NCBI GenBank assembly: GCA_038211355.1 | Contig: JBBQVR010000001.1 | Location: forward strand, 491-64,490 | Direction of reading: 5' to 3' | DNA: 64,000 bases | DNA from: Rhodobacterales bacterium | GTDB taxonomy: Bacteria > Pseudomonadota > Alphaproteobacteria > Rhodobacterales > Rhodobacteraceae | In this document: piece after piece, positions 2,963 to 22,019 of the stretch | How positions within the stretch are numbered: the stretch's first letter is position 1 | How the letters are laid out: each line of letters starts with the position of its first letter | The notes under the pieces: generated by a model | The model's input: only the letters and a program-made list of their open reading frames with translations | What the model was told of the DNA's origin: nothing | Database searches by the model: none | Position numbers and translations under genes: made by a program

Positions 2963-4014
2963 TGAGTTACCTTGCGATCCGGCATCTGGAAAAGGCCTTT
3001 GGGTCAAACCTGGTGGTGAAGGACTTCAATCTGGATGTCGAGAAGGGTGAGTTCATCTCGCTTCTTGGCCCGTCGGGCTGCGGCAAGACCACGGTCTTGC
3101 GCATGGTGGCGGGGTTTGAACGGCCGACCGCGGGCAGCATCACCATCGACGGGCAAGAGGTGACGGGCCTCAAGGCCAACGCCCGCAACATCGGGATGAT
3201 GTTTCAGGCCTATGCGCTGTTTCCGAACCTGACGGTGGCCGACAACGTGGCCTTCGGGTTGAAGGTAAAGGGCGTGGCCAAGGCCGAACGCGACGACCGT
3301 GTGGCCGAGATGCTGGCGCTGATCGGCCTGGCCGAAAAGGGCGGGTCTTATCCGTTCCAGCTGTCGGGAGGCCAGCAACAGCGCGTGGCCTTGGCGCGGG
3401 CGCTGGCCCCCAGCCCAAGGGTGCTGTTGCTGGACGAACCGCTTTCGGCGCTGGATGCCAAGGTGCGGGTATCCTTGCGCAACGAGATCCGCGAGATTCA
3501 GCAGCGACTGGGGATCACCACGATCTTCGTGACCCATGATCAGGAAGAGGCGATGAGCATTTCAGACCGGATCGTGGTGATGAACGCCGGGATCGCCGAT
3601 CAGGTGGGCACTCCGTTTGAAATCTACAACCGTCCGACGACGCGGTTCGTGGCCAACTTCGTCGGCACGCTGAACACTTTCGCGGTCACGGTCGAGGATG
3701 CGGCAACGGGCCGGGTGCGGCTTGGCGGGGCGGCGCTGACCCTGCCGCAAGGGCTTGTGACCGGCAGCACCATGCATATCGCGCTGCGCCCCGAGGCGCT
3801 GCGGCTGGGGCGTGAGCCGGGGTATGAGACAGTGGTGCCGGGCACCGTGGAAGAGGTGCATTTCATGGGGTCGATCATCCGGCTGCGCGCGCGTGTGGCG
3901 GGTGAGGCTGTGGTGCTGGACACCTTCAACCGCGCCGACCAGCCGCCCCCACGCCCCGGAACCGAGGTAGAAATCAGCCTGTCGGGCAAAGACGCGATTG
4001 TCCTGAACGGCTAG
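2962..4014 (+). CDS. ABC transporter ATP-binding protein (PotA/MalK type, C-terminal TOBE)
   Basis: Walker A GPSGCGKT, signature LSGGQQQR, Walker B LLLDEP, H-loop VTHD. Confidence 0.95.
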   Translation: MSYLAIRHLEKAFGSNLVVKDFNLDVEKGEFISLLGPSGCGKTTVLRMVAGFERPTAGSITIDGQEVTGLKANARNIGMMFQAYALFPNLTVADNVAFGLKVKGVAKAERDDRVAEMLALIGLAEKGGSYPFQLSGGQQQRVALARALAPSPRVLLLDEPLSALDAKVRVSLRNEIREIQQRLGITTIFVTHDQEEAMSISDRIVVMNAGIADQVGTPFEIYNRPTTRFVANFVGTLNTFAVTVEDAATGRVRLGGAALTLPQGLVTGSTMHIALRPEALRLGREPGYETVVPGTVEEVHFMGSIIRLRARVAGEAVVLDTFNRADQPPPRPGTEVEISLSGKDAIVLNG

Positions 4015-6854: not shown

Positions 6855-7856
6855 ATGACGATCAGGTTCGGGCTTTTGGGCGCAGGGCGCATTGGCAAGG
6901 TGCATGCGAAGGCTGTGACGGGAAATCCCGGCGCGCGGCTGGTTGCAGTGTCGGATGCGATGCCAGCCGCCGCGCAGGCGATTTCGGATCAGTATGGCTG
7001 CGATGTGCGCAGCATTGCCGATATCGCGGCGGCCAAGGACATCGACGCCGTGGTGATCTGCACGCCGACCGACACCCACGCCGACCTGATCGAGCTGTTC
7101 GTGAAGGCGGGCAAGGCGGTCTTCTGCGAAAAGCCGATTGATCTGTCGCTGGCCCGCGTGAAGCAATGCCTTGAGGTGGTGCGCGCCGCCAAAGGCACGC
7201 TGATGGTCGGCTTCAACCGCCGCTTTGACCCCCATTTCGCCGCAGTCCGCGCCGAGATCGACAAGGGCACCGTCGGCGCGGTTGAGATGGTGGTGATCAC
7301 CAGCCGCGACCCCGGCGCGCCGCCGGTGGACTACATCGCACGGTCTGGGGGAATTTTCCGCGACATGACGATCCATGACTTCGACATGGCGCGGTTCCTG
7401 TTGGGCGAAGAAGTGACCGAGGTTTCGGCCATGGCCGCCGTGCTGGTTGATCCGGCGATTGGCAAGGCGGGGGACAGTGACAGCGTTCAGGTGATGCTGA
7501 AGACGGCCACGGGCAAGATGGCCGTCATCTCGAACAGCCGCCGCGCGACCTATGGCTATGACCAGCGGATTGAGGTGCACGGATCGAAGGGTGCGGTGAG
7601 TGCCGAAAACCAGCGGCCGGTCAGCATCGAAGTGGCGACCGGCGCGGGCTATACCCGCCCGCCGCTGCATGATTTCTTCATGACCCGCTACACCGAAGCC
7701 TACGCCGCCGAAATCACCGCCTTCATCGACGCGATGGGCGGCAAGTCCAAGGCCAGCCCCTCGGGCGAAGATGGGCTTGCGGCGCTGGCACTGGCAGAAG
7801 CAGCGCTGAAATCGGTCGCCGAAGGGCGTATGGTGAAGGTCAGCGAGGTTCTCTGA
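6855..7856 (+). CDS. iolG: Inositol 2-dehydrogenase (Gfo/Idh/MocA)
   Basis: GLLGAGRIG Rossmann motif, FCEKPI, GFNRRFDP, SGGIFRDMTIHDFD. Confidence 0.85.
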   Translation: MTIRFGLLGAGRIGKVHAKAVTGNPGARLVAVSDAMPAAAQAISDQYGCDVRSIADIAAAKDIDAVVICTPTDTHADLIELFVKAGKAVFCEKPIDLSLARVKQCLEVVRAAKGTLMVGFNRRFDPHFAAVRAEIDKGTVGAVEMVVITSRDPGAPPVDYIARSGGIFRDMTIHDFDMARFLLGEEVTEVSAMAAVLVDPAIGKAGDSDSVQVMLKTATGKMAVISNSRRATYGYDQRIEVHGSKGAVSAENQRPVSIEVATGAGYTRPPLHDFFMTRYTEAYAAEITAFIDAMGGKSKASPSGEDGLAALALAEAALKSVAEGRMVKVSEVL

Positions 7857-8007: not shown

Positions 8008-10074
8008 TCAGTTCCGAGCGACTGTCCGCAATTCCAGTTGCAGGATGATGGGGCTGGGGCCGGTGTCATCGCCTTCCTCCGTCAGCCCAATTGCGCCGCG
8101 CGTGGTCTGGCCGAAACCAGCCTCGGCCAGCGCGTCGCCAAAGGCGGAACCGCCCAGGCTGCGGGTGGTGTCCAGCGCGTCTTGCGCAAGGTAGCCAAGA
8201 TCCTCAACCGGGCTTTGCGGTTTGGCGGGCGTCACGACGACCAGCATCCGTTCCTGCCCAAGGACCGTATCGGTGATCTTGAAGAGGCCCTTTTTCAATT
8301 CATCCCCCGGCTGCAGGCGGCCCGAAAACCAGTGGCTGATCGCATAATCCGCCGCGATGTAAAGGACGTTCACGTCAACCGGCCAGTCCGTGTTGTTGCG
8401 GGCAAGGACATGCACCTCGTCCTCGGGCAGCAGGGTGGGGACCGGTGCGAAGGGCAAGGCGCGTAGCGTGCGGTCTTCGGGCGTGCGGGTCTGCAGCGCA
8501 ACTGACACATCCAGCCCTTCGGACCCCACGGCAGCGCCGAGTTTCAGCAGGTTCTGCGCGCGGGCGATGGTGGTCAAAGTGTCGGCCAGGGTCGTGGCCA
8601 GCGTCGCGCCATCCTTGTCGGTGGCAAGGACGGACGGGGTGGTGCCAAGGTCTTCGGCCAGACCGGTTGCGGGCAAGACCCAGATTGCATCGGGGCGCGG
8701 GCTGTCGGGCAGGACGGCAAGGCGAAGGTCGGCCTCAACGCTTGCGTCAACGAAGATCAGCCGGGGACCTGCGGCTTCGGTCAGCGCCACCAGTGCCGTC
8801 AGCAGCTTGTCGGCGGGCGCGCTTCCCGGGGCGGGCAGGGCCACCGTCAGGGTGAAATCCAGCGCCTCATCCAGCTTGCGCAGGGTCATGCCCTTGGGCA
8901 GGTCGGCGGGAAGGGTCTTGCCGTCGCGCACCACAGGCCGGCCGGTGGCGGCGAAGGTGCCGACCGTGGTCAGTTCCACATATCCCAGCGCGGCATCGGT
9001 CGGATCGGCGGCACTTGCCAAGACGGCCATCACCGCGCCGGTCGCAAGGCCATGCAGCGACCCCGCGGCGATGGTCAGGCCCGCGTCAGTCACGTCAGCC
9101 TGCCACTGGGCGACGCGGGTGCCGGGGCTGGCCCCGAACACCACCTGATCAAGATCGCCCTCAAACAGCGGGGTAGAGCGGGCGAGGTTCCTGACCGAAT
9201 AGCGGCGCAGCACCTCTTGCCCGATCTGGCCATAGGTCGCACCGGGGTATTCGGCCAGCACCTCCATCAGGGTGAAGGTAAAGACGCCCTGCGGCTTGCG
9301 GCCCGGTTTGCCCTTGGGCAGGTTCTTTTCGGGGGTCACCTCGTTCGTCTGCGCGGCGAAGAAGGCGACAAAGCTGCCCTCACCCGCGCCGGCGTCAAAC
9401 GGTGCTTCGACCCCCTCGCGCGGATCACCCAGCGACCGGGTGGTCACAGCCTCCATCGCCATGGGATCAATCCCCAAAGCCTCGGGCGGGATCTGGCGGG
9501 TGCGCACATCTTCATCTGCCCCATCAAGGCTCCGGGTGGCGGTGCCGGAATGGCAGCTGTCGAACACCGCCCAGACATTGGCCCCCTTGGCGCGCAGGCC
9601 GTCGATCAGGGTGCCGATCTCATCATCGACCAGCGCGTTTTCCACCGTGCCCACGCCGTCTGACCAGGTGCCGATATCGACCGGCAGGAACAGCTCATCC
9701 AAGCCATCCAGTTCGGACGTGGGGTCAAGGGCCGGGGCCTGCGTGCCGTGGCCGGAAAAGTGGAGATAGACGAAATCACCGGGCTGGACCCGCGCAGTCA
9801 GATCGGCAAAGGCCGTGCGGATCGCGGCAAGCGTGGGGGCCTGATACCCCGCAACGCCATCGGTCAGGATGGTCAGATTTTCCGCGGCAAAGGGCACCGG
9901 CGCGCTGGTGGTCAGGTAGCCCGCGACCAGCTGCACATCATTGGCGGGGCCTTTCAGCCACCAGCGCTCCTCCAGGTTCTGGTATTGGTTCGCGCCGATC
10001 AGGATGGCGTGGTTTTCCGCCAACGCCGGAAAGGCGGCCGTCATCACGGCGAGGGTGAGGGCGCTGCGCCACAT
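8008..10074 (-). CDS. Secreted caspase-family (peptidase C14, metacaspase/orthocaspase type) protein with C-terminal DUF4384-like domain
   Basis: Signal peptide (FPALA|E); LKGPANDV, HFSGHG (His), FDSCHSG (Cys); C-terminal RNNTDWPVDVNVLYIAAD...GQERMLVVVT resembles DUF4384. Confidence 0.88.
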   Translation of the reverse strand: MWRSALTLAVMTAAFPALAENHAILIGANQYQNLEERWWLKGPANDVQLVAGYLTTSAPVPFAAENLTILTDGVAGYQAPTLAAIRTAFADLTARVQPGDFVYLHFSGHGTQAPALDPTSELDGLDELFLPVDIGTWSDGVGTVENALVDDEIGTLIDGLRAKGANVWAVFDSCHSGTATRSLDGADEDVRTRQIPPEALGIDPMAMEAVTTRSLGDPREGVEAPFDAGAGEGSFVAFFAAQTNEVTPEKNLPKGKPGRKPQGVFTFTLMEVLAEYPGATYGQIGQEVLRRYSVRNLARSTPLFEGDLDQVVFGASPGTRVAQWQADVTDAGLTIAAGSLHGLATGAVMAVLASAADPTDAALGYVELTTVGTFAATGRPVVRDGKTLPADLPKGMTLRKLDEALDFTLTVALPAPGSAPADKLLTALVALTEAAGPRLIFVDASVEADLRLAVLPDSPRPDAIWVLPATGLAEDLGTTPSVLATDKDGATLATTLADTLTTIARAQNLLKLGAAVGSEGLDVSVALQTRTPEDRTLRALPFAPVPTLLPEDEVHVLARNNTDWPVDVNVLYIAADYAISHWFSGRLQPGDELKKGLFKITDTVLGQERMLVVVTPAKPQSPVEDLGYLAQDALDTTRSLGGSAFGDALAEAGFGQTTRGAIGLTEEGDDTGPSPIILQLELRTVARN

Positions 10075-10697
10075 CAGTTTGTCATCAACGCATAGGTGGC
10101 CGCAGCGGGCCCCTTGTTGTCAACTTTCAGCGTGAAGGTCCCGCCAGCCGCCGGGGTCCAGCCGCAATAGGCGATGTGGCTGATGTCGGTATCGGTGCAG
10201 ACCAGACGGCCCTTGTCGTCAAGCACGGTCAGGTTGACGTTGGTGGCGGCCTTCGCCTCGACGTAAACCTCGGCGTATTCACCGCCGCGAAACTCAATCG
10301 GGGGGTAGGTGTCGTTGCCGCCGTTCGCCAGCGCCCCGATGTTGTAGACCGGGCCAGAGGCGACGCCCTTGGTCGTTTCAACTGCGATATCCTCGATCAG
10401 ACCCAGCAGGGTGGCATCGTCTGCGGCAAGCGCCTCGGCGGTGGCAAGCATCTCTTGCCAAGTGAGGGGGGCGCCCTCGGTGGGCTGGCCACCCAAGGGC
10501 AGACGGTCGCCCGCAACCGGGGCCAGCGATTTGCGCAGCCGGGCGGCCGACAGGATCAAAACGGGGTCAGCCGCCGCGACGCCGGTGTCATAAAGCCGCG
10601 CGGAAAGGGCGGCCACTTGCACGGGCGAGGCCGTCTCAGCCCCGGCGCTGGAGGCAAGGGCCAGGGCAAAGCTGGCGGCAAGCAGGGATCGGCGCAT
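10074..10697 (-). CDS. Secreted hypothetical protein, paralog A (helical N-domain plus PPC-like beta-sandwich)
   Basis: Signal peptide (SAGA|E); stop overlaps caspase start (TGATG); aligns by eye with 19121-19942 and 20066-20755. Confidence 0.8.
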   Translation of the reverse strand: MRRSLLAASFALALASSAGAETASPVQVAALSARLYDTGVAAADPVLILSAARLRKSLAPVAGDRLPLGGQPTEGAPLTWQEMLATAEALAADDATLLGLIEDIAVETTKGVASGPVYNIGALANGGNDTYPPIEFRGGEYAEVYVEAKAATNVNLTVLDDKGRLVCTDTDISHIAYCGWTPAAGGTFTLKVDNKGPAAATYALMTN

Positions 10698-10773
10698 CGG
10701 AAAACTCACACAAGGGATTGTCTTGCCGGTGACCATGCGTCCGGGTGCTTCGGCTGTAAATGCTGGAATTTTT

Positions 10774-10792
10774 CATGACGGGCTTTGTCATG
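10774..10792. promoter_or_regulatory. Putative regulator site 1, CATGAC-N7-GTCATG (minus strand TGACAAA-GCCC-GTCA)
   Basis: Inverted repeat in the divergent intergenic region; same motif at 15758 and 20044. Confidence 0.6.
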
Positions 10793-10851
10793 TGCCAAGG
10801 CTTTGGGCCGCTGTTAGCAAGGCGGCAAGCAGGCAGGAACAAAGGTGCACG

Positions 10852-12195
10852 ATGCAGACGGGACAAAAGGAAAGGCGCGGGCAACGGCGCATCTGGCCAC
10901 AGCGATATCTGGGTGAGGTGCTGGCCGCGCTGGTCGTGATCGTGCTGGTGGCGCTGGTCGGGCCGGCCAATGCCACCCCGCTTGATGATGCGATGGACCG
11001 CGTCTTCACGGTGCGCAGTGCCGACGCCGAGGACAGGTTTCTGGGGTCGGCCTTCCTGTGGGGTGCGGGGGACGTTGCCGTGACCAACGCCCATGTGGTC
11101 GGCACCGCAGGCGAGGTGCGTCTGGTGGGCCGCCACGGGGCAGAGGAAACCGCGCTGGTCATCGCGCGCGATGCGCTGCGCGATGTGGCAGTGATCGCGG
11201 TCAGCGCAAGGTTTGCCGGTGGCCGGGCCGGGCTGGACCTTGTGACCACGTCCCCCGGTCTGGGCGATGAGGTCTTTGCCCTTGGCGCACCGCTTGGGGT
11301 GGAATTCACCCTGACCGAGGGCCGGATTTCCGCCACCGCGCGGCAGGTGGACATCACCGTGCCGTTGCTGATGCTGCAGCATGATGCGGCGGTCAATCCG
11401 GGGTCTTCGGGCGGGCCTCTGGTCGATGCTGACGGGCGGCTTTTGGGGATGAACAGCCAGATCGCCGATGGCAGCCGGATGTTTGTCGGCATCGCCTATG
11501 CCATCGCGGCGCCTGACCTTGCGGCCTTCGTCACCGGCCTGATCGAGGAAACCCTGCCGCCGTTCCCGTCGCTTGGCGTGACCGCGCGACCGGTGGACCG
11601 GCAGGTGGCGGCAGCGCTGGGTGTTGCGGTGGCGGGATTGCTGGTCGACGGGGTGACCGCGGGCGGGCTGGCCGAGGCGGCGGGTCTGCGCGGTGGCGAT
11701 GTGATCGTGGCGGTGGACGGGACTGCGCTGGTGCAACCGGGCGATCTGGCCTTTGCGGTGGAACGGGCGGCTGTGGCGGGTGAAACGCTGATCACCGTGT
11801 TGCGGGGCGGGGCGCAGCTGAACCTGACCGTGTCGCTTTTGGCCGAGGAGGCTGGCCTGCGCCTGCGGCAGGTGTCGGGGGGCATGCCGGAAACGGTGCA
11901 GGCCTACCGGCTGGCAGCCCTTGGCGTGGTGCTGGACGCTGCGGGCCGGGTGACGGCGGTCACCGAAAGCTCGCCCGCCCTGTTCGCCGGGCTGGCGCTG
12001 GGTGACCGCATCCTGACGGTGAACGGCGCAGAGGTGGACCTGTCGGCCTATGAGGTGACCGAGCCGGTGTTGCTGCTGGTGCAGGCCCCGGGCGGTTTGA
12101 CGCGGCACATCCATCTGGACCCCTGGCGCGCGCAAGGCGGGGTGCGGCCTCTGGGCGGGGCGAATGTCCTTGACCCGGACGTGGTGGTGTTCTGA
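10852..12195 (+). CDS. HtrA/DegP-like serine protease with PDZ domain(s)
   Basis: VTNAHVV (His), RDVAVI (Asp), DAAVNPGSSGGPL (Ser); PDZ-like GLRGGDVIVAVDG; N-terminal hydrophobic segment. Start uncertain (10852 or GTG 10918). Confidence 0.88.
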   Translation: MQTGQKERRGQRRIWPQRYLGEVLAALVVIVLVALVGPANATPLDDAMDRVFTVRSADAEDRFLGSAFLWGAGDVAVTNAHVVGTAGEVRLVGRHGAEETALVIARDALRDVAVIAVSARFAGGRAGLDLVTTSPGLGDEVFALGAPLGVEFTLTEGRISATARQVDITVPLLMLQHDAAVNPGSSGGPLVDADGRLLGMNSQIADGSRMFVGIAYAIAAPDLAAFVTGLIEETLPPFPSLGVTARPVDRQVAAALGVAVAGLLVDGVTAGGLAEAAGLRGGDVIVAVDGTALVQPGDLAFAVERAAVAGETLITVLRGGAQLNLTVSLLAEEAGLRLRQVSGGMPETVQAYRLAALGVVLDAAGRVTAVTESSPALFAGLALGDRILTVNGAEVDLSAYEVTEPVLLLVQAPGGLTRHIHLDPWRAQGGVRPLGGANVLDPDVVVF

Positions 12196-12221
12196 ATGAG
12201 GGGCCAAGGGAAGGTGGGGGC

Positions 12222-12926
12222 ATGAACGACCGGATCCTGATCGTCGAAGACGATAGTGAGACTGCCGCCGCCGTGCGTGCGGTGGTCGAGGGGTTGGGCT
12301 GCCACGTCGACCATCACGACACGCTTGAGGCCGGCATCGCCGCTGCCATCGCCACGCCCTACAAGGTCATCGTGCTGGACCGGATGCTGCCGGGCGGCGA
12401 CGGGGTCGAGGCGATGGCACGGTTGCGGGCCGGTGGGTCAACCGCGCTGATCCTGATCCTGTCGGCGCTGGGTCGCGCCGCCAACCGGGTGGAGGGGCTG
12501 GAAAAGGGTGCGGATGACTATCTGCCGAAACCCTTTGAACCCGATGAGTTGCGCGCCCGCGTGCGCGCCCTGTTGCGACGCGGCACGATGCAGGTGCTGG
12601 ACAATGACCTTCTGGCCTTCGGTGATCTGGAAATCCGGCTGAAGGCGCGGACGGTGCATGTCAAACGCGCCCATGTGGCGGTCAGCCCGAAAGAGTTTGA
12701 GCTGTTGACCTATTTTGCCAGCAACGCCGGGCAGATCGTCACCCGGATGCAGCTTTTGGAAAACGTCTGGAACCTGCACTTCGACCCCGGCACCAATGTG
12801 GTTGATGTCCATGTCGGCCGCCTGCGCCGCAAGCTGGAAGAAGCAGGCTCCACCGCGATCCAGACCGCGCGGGGGGAGGGGTATGTCTTTGCCCCGCTTG
12901 CCCCGACTTTGGGGCCCGCCGGGTGA
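12222..12926 (+). CDS. OmpR-family response regulator (CusR/CopR-like C-terminus)
   Basis: ILIVEDD, VIVLD (phosphoacceptor), DDYLPKPF; wHTH LLENVWNLHFDPGTNVVDVHVGRLRRKL. Confidence 0.93.
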   Translation: MNDRILIVEDDSETAAAVRAVVEGLGCHVDHHDTLEAGIAAAIATPYKVIVLDRMLPGGDGVEAMARLRAGGSTALILILSALGRAANRVEGLEKGADDYLPKPFEPDELRARVRALLRRGTMQVLDNDLLAFGDLEIRLKARTVHVKRAHVAVSPKEFELLTYFASNAGQIVTRMQLLENVWNLHFDPGTNVVDVHVGRLRRKLEEAGSTAIQTARGEGYVFAPLAPTLGPAG

Positions 12927-14284
12927 CACAGGCCCGCCCCCTGGCGGCGCGGGCCACGTTGCGGCTGGCGGCGGTGATGGCCCTTGCGGTAACGGTTCTG
13001 TCGCTTCTGGCGATGGGGTTGCAATATCGGCTGGTCGAGGTGCGGCTGATGCAAGCGCAGCGCGCGCTTTTGTCAGCCGACCTGGACGGGTTCGCAGCCC
13101 TTTATGACCAGCGCCGGATCATCGCCCTGCGGCAGGCCATCGACTACCGTGCGGCGGCGGCGACGGGCGAAGAGATGCTGCTGTTGCTGGACCGTAGCGG
13201 CGCCAAGCTGGCTGGCACGCGCGCCGGCTGGCCGGCCGGCCTTACCGCCGAGGGGGATGCCTTCACCGTCGAACCCGCAACGGTGTTTGTGGAAGGCGGC
13301 ACACGCTGGCTGGTTGTGGCGCGCAAACTGCCGGGGGGGTTTCCGCTGCTTGTCGCACGATCGCTTGACCCGGTTGATGACACGCTGGCGGCCCTGCGGC
13401 GCGGGATGCTGGGACTGCTCGCCGCGCTGCTGGTGGCGGGGGGTGGGGTCGGCTGGCTGGCGGCGCGGTCGGTCATGGGCCGGATCGGGCGGGTGAATGA
13501 TCTGGCCGACCGCGTGGCCGAAGGGGCGCTGGACGCGCGGCTGCCGGGGGCGCGGTCTGACGATGAGTTCGGCCTGTTGGAAACCCACGTCCACGCCATG
13601 CTGGACCGTATTCAGAACCTGAACCGCGCCACGCACCGCCTGTCCGACACCATCGCGCATGAATTGCGCACACCGCTGAACCGGATGCTGCAAAAGCTGG
13701 GCCGGATCGAGGATCACGAAGAGGTCACGGCCGAGTTGAAGGCCGAGATGCGGCAAGCGATCCGCATGTTTGACAGCCTTCTGGACATCAGCCGCGCCGA
13801 GGCTGACGCAGGCACCGGCGGCGGTCTGGTGCCGGTTGACCTGTCTGCCGTGGCATCGGAAGTGTGGGAGTTGTATGAGCCCTTGGCCGAGGACAAGGGG
13901 CTTGCCTGCACCTCTGACATTGCCCCCGGCCTGCAGATCCTGGGTGACCGCAACCTGATTGCGCAGCTTTTGGCCAACCTTCTGGACAACGCCATCAAGT
14001 ATTGCGCGGCGGGTGACCTGCTTACCCTGACGCTGGTCGTCTTTGGCGACCGGCACCTGATGCGGGTATCGGACACCGGCCCCGGCCTGCCCGCCGAGAT
14101 GCGCGGCGAGGCGTTTGAGCGTTTCGTCCGGGCCGAGCGTGACCGGTCCACCCCCGGCCATGGCCTTGGTCTTGCCCTGGTGCGGGCCATTGCCGCCCGG
14201 CATGGCGCGCGGCTGGTGCTGCCTGACGGTGCTGGCGGATTCACGCTTGAAATCCACTGGCCCAGGCTGCAGCAATCGGACTGA
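12923..14284 (+). CDS. Sensor histidine kinase (2 TM, periplasmic domain, HAMP)
   Basis: H-box IAHELRTPL, N-box LLDNAIKY, G1 VSDTGPG, G2 GHGLGL; GTGA overlap with the regulator. Confidence 0.93.
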   Translation: MTQARPLAARATLRLAAVMALAVTVLSLLAMGLQYRLVEVRLMQAQRALLSADLDGFAALYDQRRIIALRQAIDYRAAAATGEEMLLLLDRSGAKLAGTRAGWPAGLTAEGDAFTVEPATVFVEGGTRWLVVARKLPGGFPLLVARSLDPVDDTLAALRRGMLGLLAALLVAGGGVGWLAARSVMGRIGRVNDLADRVAEGALDARLPGARSDDEFGLLETHVHAMLDRIQNLNRATHRLSDTIAHELRTPLNRMLQKLGRIEDHEEVTAELKAEMRQAIRMFDSLLDISRAEADAGTGGGLVPVDLSAVASEVWELYEPLAEDKGLACTSDIAPGLQILGDRNLIAQLLANLLDNAIKYCAAGDLLTLTLVVFGDRHLMRVSDTGPGLPAEMRGEAFERFVRAERDRSTPGHGLGLALVRAIAARHGARLVLPDGAGGFTLEIHWPRLQQSD

Positions 14285-14305
14285 CCCTCTCATTCCGGAC
14301 CCTGC

Positions 14306-15748
14306 ATGAAACGCGCTGTCCTTCCCCTGCTGTTGCTTCTGGGCTGCGCGCCGTGGAATTCGCCGCTGAACCAGCCGTTGCAGGGGGAAAACGCCAGTCT
14401 GGTTGAACCGGCGGTCGTGGGCGATGGAGAGCTTTACATCGGTCTGGCCTTTTCAGGCGGCGGGTTCCGGGCCACGTCCTTCGCCTACGGTATGCTTGAG
14501 GAATTGCGCGCGGCGGGGGTGGAAACCGGCACGCCGAACGGCCTGCTTGATCAGGTGCGGCTGGTGTCGGGTGTCTCTGGCGGGTCGGTGATGGCGGCGC
14601 AGTTTGGCTTGCGTGGGCCAGAGGGGCTGACCGGGTTCCGGGAGAAGTTCCTTCTGACCGACGGTGAGGCCTATATGGTCACCTCAGGCCTGAACCCCTT
14701 GACCATCGCCAAGGGCGTGGCGGGCGGGGTGAACGGGCGCGATACCTTTGGCCGCTATCTGGATGATACGCTGTTCAACGGCGCCACCTTCGGCGATCTG
14801 CGCAAATCCTCACGCATCAAGACCTGGATCAACGCCACCGACATGGCGAACAACACGCCGTTTCTGTTCAGCCCCGAGACGTTTGATGCGCTGTGTTCCG
14901 ACCTGTCGCAGGTGCGCCTGTCCGAGGCGGTGGCTGCCAGCGCCGCCTTCCCGCTTGTCTTCACCCCCATCGTGCTGAAGGCGCATCAGGGCAAGTGCAA
15001 CTACGTTGAGCCCGACTGGCTGACAGCCGCGCGCTATAACCCCGAGGCGACGGCCGCAATGCGCGCCCATGCCCGCGCGCTGGAAAGCTATACCAACCCA
15101 GATGAGGTGAAGTTCGTCAAACTGCTGGATGGCGGGATCACCGACAACTTCGGCACGACAGGTCTTGCGGTAGAGCGCGCCCGCGCGCAGGTGCCCTATG
15201 CGCCGCTGACGGCGGAAGAGGCGGTCAAGCTGAAACGGATGCTGTTCCTTGTCGCCAACGCCGGGGTTGAGGAAGACTATGACTGGACGCAGCAAGTGGC
15301 CGGTCCCGGTGGGGTCAACCTTGCGATGTCGATTGCCACCAGCGCCATGTCGGCGGCGTCACGGTCTGGCTATGACTCCATGCGGGGTGAACTGCGCGTG
15401 TGGGAGGCAGAGCTGATCGACTGGCGCTGCGCCTTGCCGATGGTTGAAGTGCGCCGGTTGCGCGGATCGACCGAAGGGTGGGACTGCAAGGATGTAAAGC
15501 TGTTCGTGGGTGAGGCCAGCTTTGCCAGCCTGCCCCCGGCGCTGCGCGACAAGCTGAACAATGTGCCGACCCGTCTGAAACTGCCGCCTGCTGAGGTGGA
15601 CATGGTGATTGAAGCCGGGCGATTGGCCACCCGCATGACGCCGGAGTTCAACGGTTTCCTCGCCTCGCTGGCTGGAAATAATGTGGACGGGCGGATCGTG
15701 GACGGCATCGCCGCAGGCGGGCGGCGGGTGATGCCCTTGGGGAATTGA
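14306..15748 (+). CDS. Patatin-like phospholipase, predicted lipoprotein
   Basis: Lipobox LLG|C; SGGGFRA oxyanion loop, GVSGG nucleophile, LLDGG Asp motif. Confidence 0.88.
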   Translation: MKRAVLPLLLLLGCAPWNSPLNQPLQGENASLVEPAVVGDGELYIGLAFSGGGFRATSFAYGMLEELRAAGVETGTPNGLLDQVRLVSGVSGGSVMAAQFGLRGPEGLTGFREKFLLTDGEAYMVTSGLNPLTIAKGVAGGVNGRDTFGRYLDDTLFNGATFGDLRKSSRIKTWINATDMANNTPFLFSPETFDALCSDLSQVRLSEAVAASAAFPLVFTPIVLKAHQGKCNYVEPDWLTAARYNPEATAAMRAHARALESYTNPDEVKFVKLLDGGITDNFGTTGLAVERARAQVPYAPLTAEEAVKLKRMLFLVANAGVEEDYDWTQQVAGPGGVNLAMSIATSAMSAASRSGYDSMRGELRVWEAELIDWRCALPMVEVRRLRGSTEGWDCKDVKLFVGEASFASLPPALRDKLNNVPTRLKLPPAEVDMVIEAGRLATRMTPEFNGFLASLAGNNVDGRIVDGIAAGGRRVMPLGN

Positions 15749-15757
15749 CGGGTCAGG

Positions 15758-15772
15758 TGACAAATCCGGTTA
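15758..15772. promoter_or_regulatory. Putative regulator site 3, TGACAAA-TCCG-GTTA
   Basis: About 53 bp upstream of the caspase-2 start; one mismatch to the palindrome of sites 1 and 2. Confidence 0.5.
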
Positions 15773-15824
15773 GCTGCAGGAAGCCGCTTGTTCCATGCGG
15801 GCCCTTGGCTATCTTGGGCAGGTC

Positions 15825-17801
15825 ATGCGCAAGCCTCTGTCTGCCCTTGCGGGCCTTCTGGCCCTGATGATCGCCCCGCCCGCGCTGGCCGAGGTGCGGG
15901 CAGTGCTGGTCGGAGTCAGCGATTATCTGGTGCTGGATGCCGATCTGAAAGGCCCCGCAAACGACGTGCGCCTGATGGCCGAGACGCTTGCCTTGCGCGG
16001 CGTTGATCCCGGCGCGATGACCGTGCTGACGGCTGATCCTGCAGGCCTGCCACCCGGCGTGAAAACGGCAGCCCCGCTGCGGGCCGCGATCCTTGCGGCG
16101 ATGGCGGCGGTGGCCGATGCGTCAGCCCCCGGCGATACGGTGGTTTTCTACTTCTCCGGCCACGGCGCGCAGGCCCCGGACATGAGCGGCGACGAAGGCG
16201 GTGGCTATGATGAGATATTGCTGCCCGCCGATGCTGCCGGGTGGAGAGGCGCCATCGGCGCGGTGGAAAACGCGATTCTGGATGATGAGCTGCAGGTCTG
16301 GGCGCAAGGGATGCTGTCGCGCGGCGTGCAGGTGGTGGGGCTGATCGACGCCTGCCATTCAGCCACGGGCTTTCGCGCGGCTGGGGGCGCGGGCGTGGCG
16401 CGGGTGATTGATGCGGCGGCGCTGGGCATCCCTGCGGATGTGGTGCCGGTCACGGGCAACCCCGTGCCGCCGCTGACGGGAAGTTTCGTGTTCCTCTACT
16501 CCTCTCAATCCGATCAGCGGTCGTTTGAATACCCGATGGCGGATGGCACCTGGCAGGGAGAATTCACCTTGCGGCTGGCGCAAACCTTGCAGACCGCGCC
16601 GCAGGCCAGCTGGGCGCAGGTGCTTGCCGCCACGACCGAAGGCATGGTGCAAGGCCCCGCGCGGCAGATGCCGGATGGCGAGGGGACATTGTTGCAAGCC
16701 CCGGTTTTCGGGACCGGGCAAGCCGCGCTGCGGGTGCCGGTGGCGGGGGGCAAACTGGCGGCGGGCCTGTTTCAGGGGCTGGCGGCGGGGGCAGAGGTCG
16801 CGGTTTATGCCGATGCTGCGGGGGGGGAGGCGCTGGCTGTCCTTACCCTTGGGACAGTAAGCGCGCGTGAGGCGGTTCTGATCGGCGCACTCCCCGACGC
16901 GGCGCTTTGGGCCGAGGTGGTCAGCGCCCCGCCCCCCGCGCCGCTGGTGCTGGCGGCCCCGGTGCGGGCCGATAGGGCAGACGGGTTTGAGTATGCGGCC
17001 TGGGAAGCGGCCTTGCGTGATGGAGCCGCCACCGGCCCTTCGCCCGACCTTGTGCCGATCCTGACCGGTGGCGCGGTGGCGCTGGCCGGGGCGGACGGGG
17101 TGCTGGACCCTGAGGGGCCGGGATCTACCCCGCGGATCAGGCTGCGCGAGGGCGAGGCAGAGGCGGATGCCGTGGCGCGGGTGCTGGAGGCTGCCGCCCA
17201 TGGCCTTGGCCTGCGCGCGGTCCTTGCGGGGGCGGCGGGGCGGTCGCTGACCGGCAAGGCTGCGCTCTCCATGGTGGTTGAACGCCGGGCGGCCGGGCCG
17301 GACTGTGGCGCGGTGGGCCGGGGCGTGTCGCATGACCCGGCCCAGGGGGTTGCCCCCTGTGACCAGCTTTGGCTGACGCTGACCAACACCGGCGGCAAGG
17401 CGCAGGATGTCAGCGTGCTGTACTTCGCGGCGGATTTCAGCGTGGCCCCGATCTGGCCCGCGCAGAACCTTGCCAACCGCCTGGCACCGGGGGAAAGCAC
17501 CCGCGTCGGCCTGATGATCGAGGCGGACAGCACGGCAGGACTGGAGGAAATCTGGGTTCTGGCCGTTCCGGCAGACCCCGACACCCCCCGCGTGGACCTG
17601 ACGCGCCTTGCCACGCCGGAAACCGCGCGCGACCTTGGGGGCGCAGACCCCATGACGCAGTGGCTGGAAAGCCGCCTGCCCAAGGACGGTGGCACGACGC
17701 GCGGCTTTTCCCTGAAACCCGCCGTGTTGACGATGATCCGTCAGATGGTGCGCCTGACCCCCCCAGAGTTCTTCCCCGCCGATCCCTTGATGGAGAATTG
17801 A
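15825..17801 (+). CDS. Second secreted caspase-family (C14, metacaspase type) protein with C-terminal DUF4384-like domain
   Basis: Signal peptide (PPALA|E); LKGPANDV, YFSGHG, IDACHS; C-terminal TNTGGKAQDVSVLYFAAD...GLEEIWVLAV parallels the first caspase. Confidence 0.88.
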   Translation: MRKPLSALAGLLALMIAPPALAEVRAVLVGVSDYLVLDADLKGPANDVRLMAETLALRGVDPGAMTVLTADPAGLPPGVKTAAPLRAAILAAMAAVADASAPGDTVVFYFSGHGAQAPDMSGDEGGGYDEILLPADAAGWRGAIGAVENAILDDELQVWAQGMLSRGVQVVGLIDACHSATGFRAAGGAGVARVIDAAALGIPADVVPVTGNPVPPLTGSFVFLYSSQSDQRSFEYPMADGTWQGEFTLRLAQTLQTAPQASWAQVLAATTEGMVQGPARQMPDGEGTLLQAPVFGTGQAALRVPVAGGKLAAGLFQGLAAGAEVAVYADAAGGEALAVLTLGTVSAREAVLIGALPDAALWAEVVSAPPPAPLVLAAPVRADRADGFEYAAWEAALRDGAATGPSPDLVPILTGGAVALAGADGVLDPEGPGSTPRIRLREGEAEADAVARVLEAAAHGLGLRAVLAGAAGRSLTGKAALSMVVERRAAGPDCGAVGRGVSHDPAQGVAPCDQLWLTLTNTGGKAQDVSVLYFAADFSVAPIWPAQNLANRLAPGESTRVGLMIEADSTAGLEEIWVLAVPADPDTPRVDLTRLATPETARDLGGADPMTQWLESRLPKDGGTTRGFSLKPAVLTMIRQMVRLTPPEFFPADPLMEN

Positions 17802-17802
17802 G

Positions 17803-18861
17803 ATGACGCTTTCCCATTTGCCCAAGGCCGCGTTTCTTGCGGTGCTGCTCGCCTCAACCGCGCTGGCGGAAGAGGGGCCGGGCTTTGCTGTCAAGGCCGG
17901 CGGGGTGACGGTCTCACCCTTCGCCTACGCAAAGTCCGGGGCCAAGGCGGCGCGGGCGGCCACGGCCGAGGCGGCAGGCGCAAAGGTCATCGGCGGCGAG
18001 GTTGCGGCCGAGGGGGCCTGGCCCTGGCAGGTGGCACTGCTGGTCGGCGGGGCAGAGGTCAGCTCTGACAGCCAGTTCTGTGGCGGGTCGCTGGTCATGG
18101 ACCGCTGGGTGCTTACGGCGGCGCATTGCATCCATATGGACCAGGGGGATGGCAGCTTTGCCGATCTGGCACCGCAGGACCTGTCGATCCTGGTTGGAAC
18201 GAACGCGCTGGTGCCGGGCAGGGGGGATCTGATCCCGGTCGCGGCGATCTTTCGCCACCCGTCCTACGATGGCGCCAAGTTCGACTTTGACCTAGCGCTG
18301 GTGCAACTGGCGCGCGCGCCGAATGTGCCCTACGCGCTGATCGAGGTGCCGGACGCCGAGTTTGGCGGTCTTTTGAACCAGCAGGGGGTGACGACGATCG
18401 TCACTGGCTGGGGTCTGCAGGAAGGGGCGACCCCGTCAACCGAATTGCGGCAGGCCGAGATTCAGGTGCTGGACCGTGACCTCTGCAACGCCTCGATGCT
18501 GGAGGCGCGGGCGGAAGATGCGGCCGGCGGGTTTTCCTATGCGGCGCAGACGCTGGGCCTTGGCGAGGACGATGCCTTTGCGCTGTGGGATCAGATGGTG
18601 GCGCGCGCGCCGATGCCGGTCAGCGAGAACATGATCTGTTCCGGCACATTCGAGGGCGGCAAGACCAGCTGCAACGGCGACAGCGGCGGGCCTTTGGTGG
18701 TTCCCCTGGACGACGGCAGCTACATTCAGGCCGGGATCGTCAGCTGGGGGCTGAGCGCAAGTTCGGGTCAGGGCTGCGAGGAGACGGCGCTGTTTTCCGC
18801 CTATACCGACATTTCGAAGTTCGTGCCCTGGCTGAACGAGGTGATCGCGGCGAACCCCTGA
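17803..18861 (+). CDS. Secreted chymotrypsin-family (S1A) serine protease zymogen
   Basis: Signal peptide (TALA|E), propeptide ending AK|VIGG, WPWQVAL, CGGSL, TAAHC, DLALVQL, GDSGGP. Confidence 0.92.
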   Translation: MTLSHLPKAAFLAVLLASTALAEEGPGFAVKAGGVTVSPFAYAKSGAKAARAATAEAAGAKVIGGEVAAEGAWPWQVALLVGGAEVSSDSQFCGGSLVMDRWVLTAAHCIHMDQGDGSFADLAPQDLSILVGTNALVPGRGDLIPVAAIFRHPSYDGAKFDFDLALVQLARAPNVPYALIEVPDAEFGGLLNQQGVTTIVTGWGLQEGATPSTELRQAEIQVLDRDLCNASMLEARAEDAAGGFSYAAQTLGLGEDDAFALWDQMVARAPMPVSENMICSGTFEGGKTSCNGDSGGPLVVPLDDGSYIQAGIVSWGLSASSGQGCEETALFSAYTDISKFVPWLNEVIAANP

Positions 18862-18874
18862 GCGGTCGCCCTAT

Positions 18875-18907
18875 CCTGGCGCCGACCTGGCCCTGACCTG
18901 GCGCTGA
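18875..18907. repeat. Imperfect 11-bp tandem repeat x3
   Basis: CCTGGCGCCGA CCTGGCCCTGA CCTGGCGCTGA. Confidence 0.6.
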
Positions 18908-18950
18908 CCTTGCGGCGCCGCATTTTGCGGCACGGCCTTGCCCCCCAGCC

Positions 18951-19108
18951 GCGGCCAAAGGGGCCGCAGCCGGGGCCCCGTGGGGGCGTTTCGCCCCCAA
19001 AGGCTGCAAGCACGCTTGCAGCCTTTCCCCCGAGGATATTTGGCGAAGAGGAAGGGCAGGAAGACGGGATCTTCCTGCAGAACGGCCCGCAGCTTTGGGC
19101 TGCGAGCC
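18951..19108. repeat. Mosaic of hairpins (REP/BIME-like) between convergent genes
   Basis: GCGGCC-aaagg-GGCCGC; GGGGGCG-ttt-CGCCCCC; AAAGGCTGCAAGC-ac-GCTTGCAGCCTTT; CGCAGC-tttgg-GCTGCG. Confidence 0.6.
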
Positions 19109-19120
19109 GGGTTTGCGGTC

Positions 19121-19942
19121 TTAGTTCGTCATCAGGTGGTAGCTGTTGCGCACGCTGCCCATGTTCTGGACAGTGACGTAGAAATAGCCATCCCAAGCGG
19201 GGGTAAAGTCGCAGTAAAGCGAGTCTGACCAGCTGACATCATAGCAAAAGACGTTGCCGTTTTCATCGGTGATCGCCACGTCAAGATCGGTGTCGCCGTC
19301 GCCCACCACCGCAATTTCGCCGTAGGAATTGCCGTAGAACGGGATTTCCCAGACATCGGTCTGGCCCGCGGGCAGGCGGGACAGCCACTGCACCGCGCCG
19401 CCGATCCGCCCGCGGGAGCCTTCGGCCATCGCATCCTCGATCAGGCCAAGGATCGCCTCATCTCCGGCGGCAAGCTCGGTCGCCTTGGCGAACATCGCTT
19501 CTGCGGTCACGGGGGCGTCGGCGGCGCCTTCCTCTTCTGATGTGGCGGTAAAAAAGCTGGCCTTGGCGGCAGGGCGCATCCCGTCAGCCATCATCGGGGC
19601 CGGAGCGGCAGGGGCTGCGGAAGGGGCAACCTTTTTGCGCAAGGATTCCTGATCCCCCTCGGCGAAGGCGATGGTGGCAGGGTCGAGTGCCGCAGCCTCA
19701 GCCGTGGTGACGCTGACCGAAGCCGCGAGTTTGGCCGCGGCCAGCACGGTCAGCGCATCGCCTTGCGCAAGGCCCACGTCATAGAGGTCCTGGGCCAGGC
19801 CCATGGTCGTGGCACCCCCGGCAGCGGTGGCGGTGGCCGCGGGGTCGATGTTGGTGCCCGATTTGTCTTGTGCAAAGGCGGGAATGGCCAGCGCGACCAG
19901 TGTGGTCGTGGCCAGCGCGCGCGAAAGGGATTTCAGCGTCAT
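19121..19942 (-). CDS. Secreted hypothetical protein, paralog B (helical N-domain plus PPC-like beta-sandwich)
   Basis: Signal peptide (PAFA|Q); GDGDTDLDVAITDENGNVFC...YCDFTP...YHLMTN. Confidence 0.8.
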   Translation of the reverse strand: MTLKSLSRALATTTLVALAIPAFAQDKSGTNIDPAATATAAGGATTMGLAQDLYDVGLAQGDALTVLAAAKLAASVSVTTAEAAALDPATIAFAEGDQESLRKKVAPSAAPAAPAPMMADGMRPAAKASFFTATSEEEGAADAPVTAEAMFAKATELAAGDEAILGLIEDAMAEGSRGRIGGAVQWLSRLPAGQTDVWEIPFYGNSYGEIAVVGDGDTDLDVAITDENGNVFCYDVSWSDSLYCDFTPAWDGYFYVTVQNMGSVRNSYHLMTN

Positions 19943-20041
19943 GTCTGATCCTGTGAGATGGGAGCCCGGAACAGGGGCCCGGAATGGGAACCACGTGGAT
20001 CAACCTTGGCAGGCAGCCCGCCCTTTGAGAAGAGAGCATGG

Positions 20042-20060
20042 CGTGACAAATACCGTCATG
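20042..20060. promoter_or_regulatory. Putative regulator site 2, CGTGACAAA-TACC-GTCATG
   Basis: About 100 bp upstream of paralog B; may also act as the terminator hairpin of paralog C. Confidence 0.55.
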
Positions 20061-20065
20061 CCACC

Positions 20066-20755
20066 CTAGTTGCCGATCAGGCGGTAGCTGTTTTGCAGGC
20101 TGCCGGGGTTGTGGATGGTGGCGGTGAAAAAGTCGTTGCGGGCCGGGGTCAGCCGGCACAGGGCCGGATCAACCGACGGCGGCGTGGCGCAGACGATGTT
20201 GCCCGCCGCATCTTGCAGGGTCAGGGACAAGGGGGTGTCGCCATCGCCGATCACGCCGATCTCGGCTGTGACCTCACCAAAGAGGGGGAGGCGCCATGTA
20301 TCGGTCTGGCCGGGGCCAAGGTCGGCCTTCGCCTCGGTCGCGGTTTCGGTGGGTCCGCGCGGCAACTGTGCGTCAAGGTCATAGGCCAGGTCCTGCAAGG
20401 CGGGATCGTCGCCGACCAGGTTGCGGACGATGGCCAAGGCTGCCTCGCTGGCCGGGTCGGGGGCGGCGGTGCGGCCGGTGGGGGCGTCAGGGACCGCATC
20501 ACCGCTGGTCGTGCGCGCCCAGGCCGGGGCGGGGCGCAGGGTGACGCCGCGCGCCAGGCGAATGGCCACCAGCATGGGCAGCACCTCGCCCGAAGTCAGG
20601 GCCTGTTGCCAGGTGCGCTGCGCCAGGATCAGGCGTTGGGCCGTGCCGGGCGTGCCACCGGGGGTGGCGGACAGGTTTGCCGCCTCAGCCAGCGCGGCGG
20701 GGGCGGCAAGAAGCGTCACAAGAAGGGCGGCACCAATGGCTGGGGAGCGGATCAT
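20066..20755 (-). CDS. Secreted hypothetical protein, paralog C (helical N-domain plus PPC-like beta-sandwich)
   Basis: Signal peptide from ATG 20755 (AALA|E); GDGDTPLSLTLQDAAGNIVC...LCRLTP...YRLIGN. Confidence 0.78.
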   Translation of the reverse strand: MIRSPAIGAALLVTLLAAPAALAEAANLSATPGGTPGTAQRLILAQRTWQQALTSGEVLPMLVAIRLARGVTLRPAPAWARTTSGDAVPDAPTGRTAAPDPASEAALAIVRNLVGDDPALQDLAYDLDAQLPRGPTETATEAKADLGPGQTDTWRLPLFGEVTAEIGVIGDGDTPLSLTLQDAAGNIVCATPPSVDPALCRLTPARNDFFTATIHNPGSLQNSYRLIGN

Positions 20756-20870
20756 TTTCGGGCTTTCCGGGGCTGCGGCGAACTGTGGCAAAGCCAGGTG
20801 CAAGGGACAAGTGCGGAAACCTTTCCGTACCCGGCATTTCCGGCTAGCAGAAGGGAAACGGAGGTGATGC

Positions 20871-22019
20871 ATGCGCGACATTCTGGACCGGCTTTTGGCC
20901 TTCGACACGGTCAGCTTCAAGCCAAACATGGGGCTGATGCTTTATGTGAAGGACTTGCTGGAGGGGGCAGGCATTGCCGTGACCCTGATCCCGGATGCCG
21001 GGGGCGGGAAGGCGAACCTCTTTGCCACCGTGGGGCCACAGGGGCAGGGTGGGGTCATGCTCTCAGGCCATACCGATGTGGTGCCGGTAGAGGGGCAGAC
21101 CTGGACCAAGCCCCCCTTCGCGATGACCGAGGCTGACGGCCGCATCTACGGGCGGGGGGCGGCAGACATGAAGGGCTTCGTTGCCTGTGCGGTGGCGGCG
21201 ATGCTTGACGCCGCAAACCGGCCGTTGCGCGTGCCGCTGCATCTGGCGCTGTCTTATGACGAAGAGATTGGCTGCATGGGGGTGCGCAGTCTGATCGACA
21301 TGCTGGATGCGGCCCCGGTGCGGCCAAGGATGTGCATCGTGGGGGAACCCACGGGGATGCAGGTCGCGACCGGCCACAAGGGCAAGGTCGCGCTGCGGGC
21401 AACCTGCGTGGGGCGTGAGGGGCATTCGGCGCTGGCCCCGCTGGCCTTGAATGCGCTGCATCTGGCGGGGGATTTTCTGGTGGCGGTCAGGGGTTTGCAG
21501 GCTGAGGTGGCGGCGACGGGCCTGCGCGATGGTGACTATGACGTGCCCTATACCACGCTGCATGTCGGCAAGATGTCGGGCGGGGTGCAGGTCAATATCG
21601 TGCCCAACCACGCGAGCCTGGACTTTGAGATCCGGTCGCTGGCGGATGAGGATGTGGCGGGCCTGATCACCCGGCTGGAGGCGGCGGCGGAAGGGATCGT
21701 GGCACCACTTCGGGCAGAGTTTCCAGAGGCCGCGATCAGGGTGGAGCGCTTGTGGAATTACCCCGGCCTTGGCACGCCATCGGATGCGGGGGTGGTCAAC
21801 TTCGTCAAGGGGCTGACGGGGGCGAACGGGACGATCAAGGTGGCTTTCGGGACGGAAGGGGGCCTCTTTGACCAGCGGCTTGGCATTCCGACGGTGATCT
21901 GCGGGCCGGGGTCAATGGCGCAGGGGCACAAGCCGGATGAGTTCGTGACCGTGGAGCAGCTGGAGCGGTGCGAGGCGATGCTGGGCGCATTGATCCAGCG
22001 GCTGGAGGCGGGGTTTTAG
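20871..22019 (+). CDS. argE: Acetylornithine deacetylase (M20)
   Basis: LSGHTDVVP, YGRGAADMKG, SYDEEIGC, IVGEPT, AHKPDEF-like terminal motif. Confidence 0.85.
   Translation: MRDILDRLLAFDTVSFKPNMGLMLYVKDLLEGAGIAVTLIPDAGGGKANLFATVGPQGQGGVMLSGHTDVVPVEGQTWTKPPFAMTEADGRIYGRGAADMKGFVACAVAAMLDAANRPLRVPLHLALSYDEEIGCMGVRSLIDMLDAAPVRPRMCIVGEPTGMQVATGHKGKVALRATCVGREGHSALAPLALNALHLAGDFLVAVRGLQAEVAATGLRDGDYDVPYTTLHVGKMSGGVQVNIVPNHASLDFEIRSLADEDVAGLITRLEAAAEGIVAPLRAEFPEAAIRVERLWNYPGLGTPSDAGVVNFVKGLTGANGTIKVAFGTEGGLFDQRLGIPTVICGPGSMAQGHKPDEFVTVEQLERCEAMLGALIQRLEAGF

Follow-up and report, generated by a model that had tools for sequence, protein, structure and literature searches.

The 64,000-nucleotide stretch of DNA analysed here (the window; positions 491 to 64,490 of the forward strand of contig JBBQVR010000001.1, assembly GCA_038211355.1, from a Rhodobacterales bacterium) carries a cluster that encodes exported proteases, a two-component system and three secreted paralogs (A, B and C), and the question raised by this locus is which protein recognises the short pseudo-palindrome TGACAAA-N4-GTYA found in its promoter regions, and which genes are thereby controlled. 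Sequence comparison suggests that the motif is probably the operator of the OmpR-family response regulator encoded within the cluster at 12222-12926. The original prediction had placed three sites here, and all of them were recovered at these places by exact pattern matching. Site 1 (10776-10790, minus strand, TGACAAAGCCCGTCA, with its flanks ACA-TGACAAAGCCCGTCA-TGA) lies between paralog A (probable ATG at 10697) and htrA (ATG at 10852), in the region from which the paralog A/caspase-1 unit and the htrA-response regulator-histidine kinase-patatin operon diverge; site 3 (15758-15772, plus strand, TGACAAATCCGGTTA) lies 10 nt past the patatin stop codon and 52 nt ahead of the caspase-2 ATG at 15825; and site 2 (20044-20058, plus strand, CG-TGACAAATACCGTCA-TG) lies 102 nt upstream of the paralog B ATG at 19942 and 8 nt past the paralog C stop codon, the predicted distances to caspase-2 and paralog B thus being upheld. 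All three exact matches are intergenic and fall inside 9.3 kb of the one cluster. Against 0.03 matches expected from dinucleotide-preserving shuffles, three were observed in the window, and the whole assembly (265 contigs, 3,565,376 bases, 64% G+C) contains these three and no other (3 matches in 3.57 Mb, all in the cluster). The bare heptamer TGACAAA has 311 occurrences in the genome, so that the rarity comes from the second half-site.

The consensus of the motif is R-TGACAAA-(T/G)NC(C/G)-GTCA-Y, in which the half-sites TGAC and GTCA are spaced as TGAC-N7-GTCA, with centres 11 bp apart, about one helical turn, and with an A-tract on one half-site only. Both halves are kept in about 88 orthologous sites. 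Compared as an inverted repeat, RTGAC and GTCAY agree at 5 of 5 positions, whereas a direct-repeat reading accounts for only 3 of 10 positions and was rejected.

Conservation upstream of orthologs, proposed with the original prediction as a check, was assessed in 55 Tabrizicola genomes searched with paralog B, HtrA and caspase-2, the best 30 loci being taken for each query. The exact pattern was observed at the place of site 1, before htrA and paralog A, in 30 of 30 loci; at the place of site 3, before caspase-2, in 29 of 30 species; and at the place of site 2, before paralog B, in 28 of 30 species, and the intergenic DNA flanking the sites varies in all three sets of loci. As only about 0.004 matches are expected by chance in a locus of 4-5 kb, this conservation is not circular. 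One of the two site-2 misses is TGACAAGTACCTTCA in genome G004, whose histidine kinase is a pseudogene with two stop codons, and the other is the decayed CGACACATTCCGACG in G020, which has no two-component system; the single site-3 miss has GTAA (G036). Nearly all relatives carry the full GTCA form at site 3, the GTTA found in this genome being a derived form that is tolerated at the weak half-site. Counted over the 55 genomes, TGACAAA-N4-GTCA gives 216 matches against 9 for the reversed control.

The association was also observed beyond the genus. Loci with orthologs of the histidine kinase (56-89% identity) were collected from Fuscovulum blasticum, Cypionkella, Pseudogemmobacter, Rhodobacter spp., Oceanicola sp. 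S124 and Pseudooceanicola antarcticus, and in the ortholog set the site lies no more than 300 nt upstream of htrA in 44 of the 46 loci with usable upstream DNA. The order of paralog A (minus strand), site, and htrA-response regulator-histidine kinase (plus strand) is kept across genera, and in some other genera, where patatin is missing from the locus, a second operator directly follows the histidine kinase and precedes caspase-2. A family sample of one genome per genus from 150 genera included nine with the kinase, seven of which were compared upstream: four of these (response regulator identity 70-76%) keep TGAC-N7-GTCA in the paralog A/htrA region, and the remaining three (63-72%) have TAAC-N7-GTCA or TAAC-N7-TTCA at that place, duplicated in one case. 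Read on the opposite strand, TAAC-N7-GTCA is TGACAAT-N4-GTTA, so that GTTA is the normal second half-site in distant orthologs and the GT(C/T)A degeneracy originally proposed was apt; this distant variant also indicates that, of the two half-sites, ATGACAA(A/T) is strong and GT(C/T)A weaker.

Sites were also found outside the cluster. A position weight matrix built from 84 sites of other species was used to scan this genome, in which site 1 ranked first (score 31.0), site 2 second (30.0), a site upstream of tolQ third (24.4) and C38:3309 fourth (23.5). The tolQ site (contig C79, 7266-7280, ATGACAACTGCCGTCAT) lies 113 nt ahead of the ATG and about 35 nt upstream of a TTGGCA -35 element, and it was missed by the exact pattern because of one mismatch. 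The product is TolQ (TIGR02796, 278 bits against a cut-off of 221), the ExbB model scoring below its cut-off. Besides the cluster sites, the tolQ-upstream sites form a further orthologous group across the genus, within a promoter (contig C79, about 7150-7300; loci L178-L225) that is very strongly conserved genus-wide (CACAGACTTGTGTTGGCATTCCCCCTGCAATCTTGATAGAATC). On contig C38 (about 3216-3330), the operator GCATGACAAGTGCCGTCACCA lies 95 nt upstream of a DUF5333 gene next to nuoF and has orthologous sites in at least two other species (loci L099 and L105). The regulon of four transcription units first proposed is therefore borne out in that sites precede all four, and falls short in its confinement to the cluster, as tolQ and the DUF5333 gene also carry the site. 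Weaker matrix matches occur before a LuxR-family gene (C5:26135) and before a second degP that follows hflK/hflC (C60:11551), the latter with one good half-site only (GCATGACAAATGCATTCAC); this half-operator resembles TCACAAATGCATTAC, the published site of the regulator CenR at Rhodobacter sphaeroides RSP_1413 (PMC9275681). A further inverted pair with TTTGTCA in it, GTCACAAAC...GCTTTGTCAT, was noticed between the DUF5333 operator and its gene.

The tolQ site follows the presence of the two-component system. At its fixed place in the promoter it was detected in 35 of the 39 genus genomes that have the system and in none of the nine that lack HtrA and the histidine kinase (G001, G007, G011, G020, G034, G062, G063, G071 and G077). 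Overall, a histidine kinase ortholog was not found in 12 of the 55 genus genomes, which, after setting aside two with htrA at a contig end, leaves about ten without the system, and two further genomes hold only a degraded copy; by promoter sequence, the genomes without the system belong to four or more distinct lineages. Among five genomes examined in which it is lost or broken, four (G061, G007, G020 and G004) show half-site decay at one operator or several: in G061, which has a degraded cluster, the tolQ spacer ATCCGCC is kept and both half-sites are mutated; in G007 the left tolQ half-site is mutated (TGTG); and in G004 the tolQ site is intact and only the paralog B site is damaged. G071 has no intact tolQ site either. 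The cluster as a whole is decaying in G004 and G061, where stop codons interrupt caspase-2 and the histidine kinase and only fragments of htrA are left, indicating that cells can dispense with the system and that some lineages are losing it.

Within the cluster, the response regulator holds the only DNA-binding domain found among the encoded proteins; its nearest paralog in the genome shares 38-39% identity, so that no close paralog exists, and it is better conserved across genera (63-88%) than HtrA (37-68%) and the histidine kinase (48-89%). Because the site tracks the two-component system, and because this conserved regulator is the sole DNA-binding protein of the cluster and has no close paralog, it is the most likely binder. 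The original assignment of the motif as its binding site accordingly stands as far as a real, conserved cis-element that follows the system and a best candidate for its ligand are concerned, the binding itself being predicted from sequence. The protein has the receiver and winged-helix Trans_reg_C domains of the OmpR/PhoB type (Pfam Response_reg PF00072, 1.8e-21; Trans_reg_C PF00486, 1e-25), with its cognate histidine kinase adjoining. Its C-terminus had also been described as CusR-like, a description that was not retained for the regulator: its scores against the PhoB, heavy-metal response regulator, CseB and MtrA models are about equal and reach no curated cut-off, that of the heavy-metal response regulator family TIGR01387 included (168.2 bits against 279.2), and it is by model scores an ordinary OmpR-family protein. 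Similarly, the best NCBIfam model for the histidine kinase is the heavy-metal sensor kinase TIGR01386, of which it is not a member (150.4 bits against 292.55), nor does it reach any other equivalog cut-off; the best solved relatives of the response regulator are KdpE, PrrA, MtrA and BasR, none of them a copper regulator; and no metal efflux, oxidase or metal-binding genes were found as neighbours.

Several observations weigh against assigning the motif to this regulator. OmpR-family regulators usually bind direct repeats, palindromic boxes being known for the CusR/CopR branch, and the site here is an inverted repeat rather than the head-to-tail pair of half-sites expected of the family. Three genomes with the system have no tolQ site (G005, G075 and G069) and a fourth has a degenerate one (G068), and conversely G023, which is 81% complete, shows a tolQ site with no system detected. 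The asymmetric site is co-directional with paralog A, caspase-2, tolQ and the DUF5333 gene and is opposite in direction for htrA and paralog B. The pattern TGACAAA-N4-GTYA was defined after the sites had been seen, its independent support being the recurrence at orthologous places in other genomes, and the genomes of one genus are not independent samples. Moreover, in the sample of 150 genera the looser pattern TGACAAR-N4-GTCA has a real background, with a mean of 3.9 matches per genome where the kinase is missing, 8.0 where it is present and about 1 for the reversed control, so that only position-specific comparisons carry weight; as a test of the link to the kinase, this family-wide count, with a difference of only two-fold and a sizeable background, is weak alone and was set aside. 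The looser pattern is about four times as frequent as its reversed control even in genomes without this kinase, which may mean that related TGAC...GTCA boxes serve other regulators of the family, or that the reversed control is not stringent enough.

Promoter-like blocks were observed downstream of the operator at five promoters, and -35 and -10 elements could be proposed from their conservation. The predicted caspase-2 promoter (15787-15815, plus strand) consists of CTTGTT (15787-15792), a 17-nt spacer and TATCTT (15810-15815), with the operator centre at about -57 and with its blocks at a constant distance from the operator in 29 species; that of paralog B (20003-20031, minus strand) consists of TTCTCA (20031-20026), 17 nt and CAAGGT (20008-20003), with the operator centre at about -55 and a nearly invariant TTGAGAAG block 12 nt from the operator in 28 species; that of paralog A (10732-10761, minus strand) consists of TTTACA (10761-10756), 18 nt and CATGGT (10737-10732), with the operator centre at about -58, with GCATTTACAGG and CGCAT blocks kept in 30 species and with CCTGTAAA also present in other genera; that of htrA (10792-10820, plus strand) has a poor -35, GTGCCA (10792-10797), abutting the operator and a -10-like TAGCAA (10815-10820), with the operator centre at about -44 and TGTGCC and CTAG/ATAG blocks at a fixed operator distance in all genera; and that of tolQ consists of TTGGCA, 18 nt and TAGAAT, with the operator centre at about -79, two helical turns further upstream. 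For the promoters within the window, transcription starts are predicted at about 10827 (htrA), 10725 (paralog A), 15822 (caspase-2) and 19996 (paralog B). Operator centres at -57, -55, -58, -44 and -79 are typical of activators and thus favour activation, and the weak -35 hexamers GTGCCA, TTCTCA and CTTGTT point to activator-dependent promoters. As the predicted -10 element of caspase-2 ends 9 nt before its ATG and no Shine-Dalgarno sequence occurs in any species (15810-15827), the caspase-2/trypsin mRNA may be leaderless, or close to it.

In the mechanism proposed from these data, the membrane histidine kinase (12923-14284), in which a periplasmic sensor domain of about 130 residues is predicted ahead of the HAMP domain (residues 180-231), would sense an envelope signal and phosphorylate the response regulator; a dimer of the regulator would then occupy the two half-sites, whose centres are 11 bp apart, and recruit RNA polymerase to the weak promoters just downstream. 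An envelope signal is the likely input because all cluster products other than the response regulator and the histidine kinase are exported or belong to the envelope. The predicted targets in the cluster would be htrA-response regulator-histidine kinase-patatin, paralog A-caspase-1, caspase-2-trypsin and paralog B, the site upstream of the first of these implying positive autoregulation; outside the window they would be the tolQ (tol-pal) operon and the DUF5333 gene.

Activation is probable rather than assured, and a regulator that binds the sites and mainly represses, or that activates some promoters and represses others, is an unlikely but credible variant. The asymmetric site is oriented differently at different targets, and a TGTAAAT-like element upstream of the operator in the htrA direction would, if it were the -10, place the operator downstream of the start; on the other hand, at each of the five promoters conserved -35/-10-like blocks follow the operator, spaced as at class I/II activator sites, and the weak -35 hexamers suggest dependence on an activator.

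Assignment of the sites to the essential alpha-proteobacterial regulator CenR instead of the local response regulator is considerably less probable. CenR activates tolQRAB in Rhodobacter sphaeroides as a direct target and binds TGA-N8-TGA, its tolQ site being TGACGCAGATGTGTT; several published CenR sites begin with TGAC or contain GTCA or GTTA, such as TGACAAACGTGTTAG and TGGCAAAAATGTCAC, and they likewise lie just upstream of -35 elements (PMC9275681). The CenR box, however, is a direct repeat with its second half one base closer (TGAC-N6-GTGA) than in the TGAC-N7-GTCA found here. In addition, a separate CenR-like box, CCACAGACTTGTGTT, abuts the TTGGCA -35 in all Tabrizicola tolQ promoters, about 25 nt downstream of the TGAC-N7-GTCA place, and it is kept in all nine genomes that have neither the local system nor the TGAC-N7-GTCA site; because only the TGAC-N7-GTCA box is restricted to genomes with the local system, the two are different elements. 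Nor would an essential and universal CenR account for the disappearance or decay of the site in precisely the genomes that have lost the local system. The CenR box was therefore rejected as the identity of the motif, its repeat type and spacing differing from the published list, and the tolQ promoter appears to take two OmpR-family inputs, one through the CenR-like box everywhere and one through the local box where the accessory system exists. A paper on EssR/CenR of Brucella gives no motif for comparison.

Iron-type operators bound by an Rrf2 repressor such as IscR are a very improbable source of the sites. TGAC-N7-GTCA fits the TGA-N9-TCA skeleton of the RirA-box, to which the IscR-bound Iron-Rhodo-box of Rhodobacteraceae is described as similar (PMC1698941, PMC4618611), the genome encodes three Rrf2 proteins, and TolQ is homologous to the iron-regulated ExbB. 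The skeleton is equal, but the targets (proteases, tolQ and the DUF5333 gene) include no iron uptake or storage gene, the tolQ product is TolQ and not ExbB by the scores given above, the upstream region of the IscR-like gene contains no TGAC-N7-GTCA, the sites here precede the predicted -35, unlike published IscR sites, which overlap the -35/-10 elements, and the presence of the site tracks the two-component system and no Rrf2 gene. That sites 2 and 3 are merely RNA hairpins that terminate or stabilise the paralog C and patatin transcripts is scarcely credible and was rejected, site 2 included: both lie 8-10 nt past a stop codon and site 2 extends here to a 9-pair stem, but a terminator consensus scan gave no match on any site, fold z-scores are unremarkable (-1.4, +0.4 and -0.95), complementarity across species extends over 5 bp only, the 'loop' AAAT never varies and changes at the flanking pair are not compensatory (AT 37, GT 20, GC 17, AC 12), and the same sequence is found at places where no transcript ends, in the divergent promoter (site 1) and far upstream of tolQ.

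The genes around the sites are arranged in compact units. On the minus strand, paralog A (10074-10697, with a conserved MRRSLL signal-peptide start at 10697) and caspase-1 (8008-10074), a Peptidase_C14 protein by domain search, form one transcription unit (8008-10697), divergent from htrA, in which the stop and start codons overlap at 10074. On the plus strand, the operon proposed to be autoregulated begins with an HtrA/DegP-like serine protease with Trypsin_2 and PDZ domains (10852-12195), continues with the response regulator (12222-12926) and the histidine kinase (12923-14284; HAMP, HisKA and HATPase_c domains), whose genes overlap by 4 nt, and ends in the genus with a patatin-like phospholipase (14306-15748) that starts 22 nt past the histidine kinase stop codon. 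It is followed on the same strand by the unit (15825-18861) of caspase-2 (15825-17801), also a Peptidase_C14 protein, whose ATGCGC start at 15825 is kept across species, and a trypsin-like S1 protease assigned by domain search (17803-18861). In some relatives, short palindromic inserts of two types, GGGCCCAAAATTTTTCGCCGAAAAATTTTGGGCC and CTCCCCTCCCCCTCGTGGGGAGGGGATGGGGG, were observed between patatin and caspase-2, just upstream of site 3 (loci L067-L069, L073 and L076, and loci L071, L072, L074, L077 and L084); the operator and promoter downstream are intact, and the inserts look like terminators or small mobile repeats. Paralog B (19121-19942, minus strand) is a secreted protein with no assigned family, and a 10-pair hairpin with a T-rich tail at 19056-19078 (minus strand), about 45 nt past its stop codon, is likely the terminator of its unit. 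Paralog C (20066-20929, minus strand; probable start at 20758) shares a 112-bp upstream region with a divergent argE-like gene (20871-22019), and no operator site was found upstream of it in this genome or in the 29 other species examined, in agreement with the original prediction that it has no clear site.

Taken together, an unannotated cluster becomes a testable regulon with one regulator, one 15-bp box and six or more predicted transcription units, tol-pal among them, and it offers a handle on the inducing signal of exported caspase-like and serine proteases. The box has decayed repeatedly once the regulator was lost, which provides a clean natural experiment in regulator-operator co-evolution. 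Tentatively, and as a possibility well short of an expectation, this may be an undescribed Paracoccaceae envelope regulon, in which one dispensable two-component system would co-induce Tol-Pal and an exported proteolytic set (the HtrA-like protease, two caspase-like peptidases, a trypsin-like zymogen, a lipoprotein patatin and the secreted paralogs) as a programme for envelope remodelling, attack or self-lysis atop the essential CenKR control of tolQ. The regulon is new and of a familiar kind, and would be of greater interest if exported caspase-like proteases and Tol-Pal do form a dedicated envelope programme. A literature search for the motif and for a two-component or metacaspase system of Tabrizicola found nothing relevant.

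Among known systems, CpxAR and BaeSR of E. coli pair a periplasm-sensing histidine kinase with an OmpR-family regulator, control a DegP/HtrA-type protease and autoregulate, and the tie of such a pair to a DegP/HtrA-type protease is shared by the system described here. The CpxR box is a direct repeat, GTAAA-N5-GTAAA, which the box here is not, and the present regulator scores 104 bits on the CpxR model, against a cut-off of 341; the regulon here also differs in adding two exported caspase-like peptidases, a trypsin-like protease, a patatin and three secreted paralogs. The CusR box of CusR/HprR and the copper box of CopR/PcoR likewise belong to OmpR-family regulators with periplasm-sensing kinases. 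The CusR box has the form TGAC-N6-GTCA, whereas the spacer here is N7 and the A-tract is present on one half-site only; the box itself is said to have been given as AAAATGACAANNTTGTCATTTT by Yamamoto and Ishihama in 2005. In E. coli, one TGACAA-containing pseudo-palindrome in a divergent region drives both the CusR regulator operon and the target operon (PMC10920338). Unlike in the CusR and CopR systems, the neighbours here are exported proteases (HtrA, two Peptidase_C14 proteins and trypsin), a patatin and secreted paralogs, and not metal efflux or oxidase genes. The RirA-box and Iron-Rhodo-box share the palindromic TGA-N9-TCA with the operator described here and differ in serving Rrf2-family proteins, iron-gene targets and promoter-overlapping repression, without a link to this two-component system (PMC1698941, PMC4618611). 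The CenKR regulon of R. sphaeroides is likewise an alpha-proteobacterial OmpR-family envelope regulon that includes tolQRAB and exported envelope proteins, with sites that begin with TGAC and lie just upstream of the -35 (PMC9275681). The CenR box, however, is a direct TGA-N8-TGA, whereas the site here is inverted, with TCA at N9, and CenR and CenK are essential and encoded apart, whereas the system described here is dispensable and encoded in a contiguous htrA-response regulator-histidine kinase operon.

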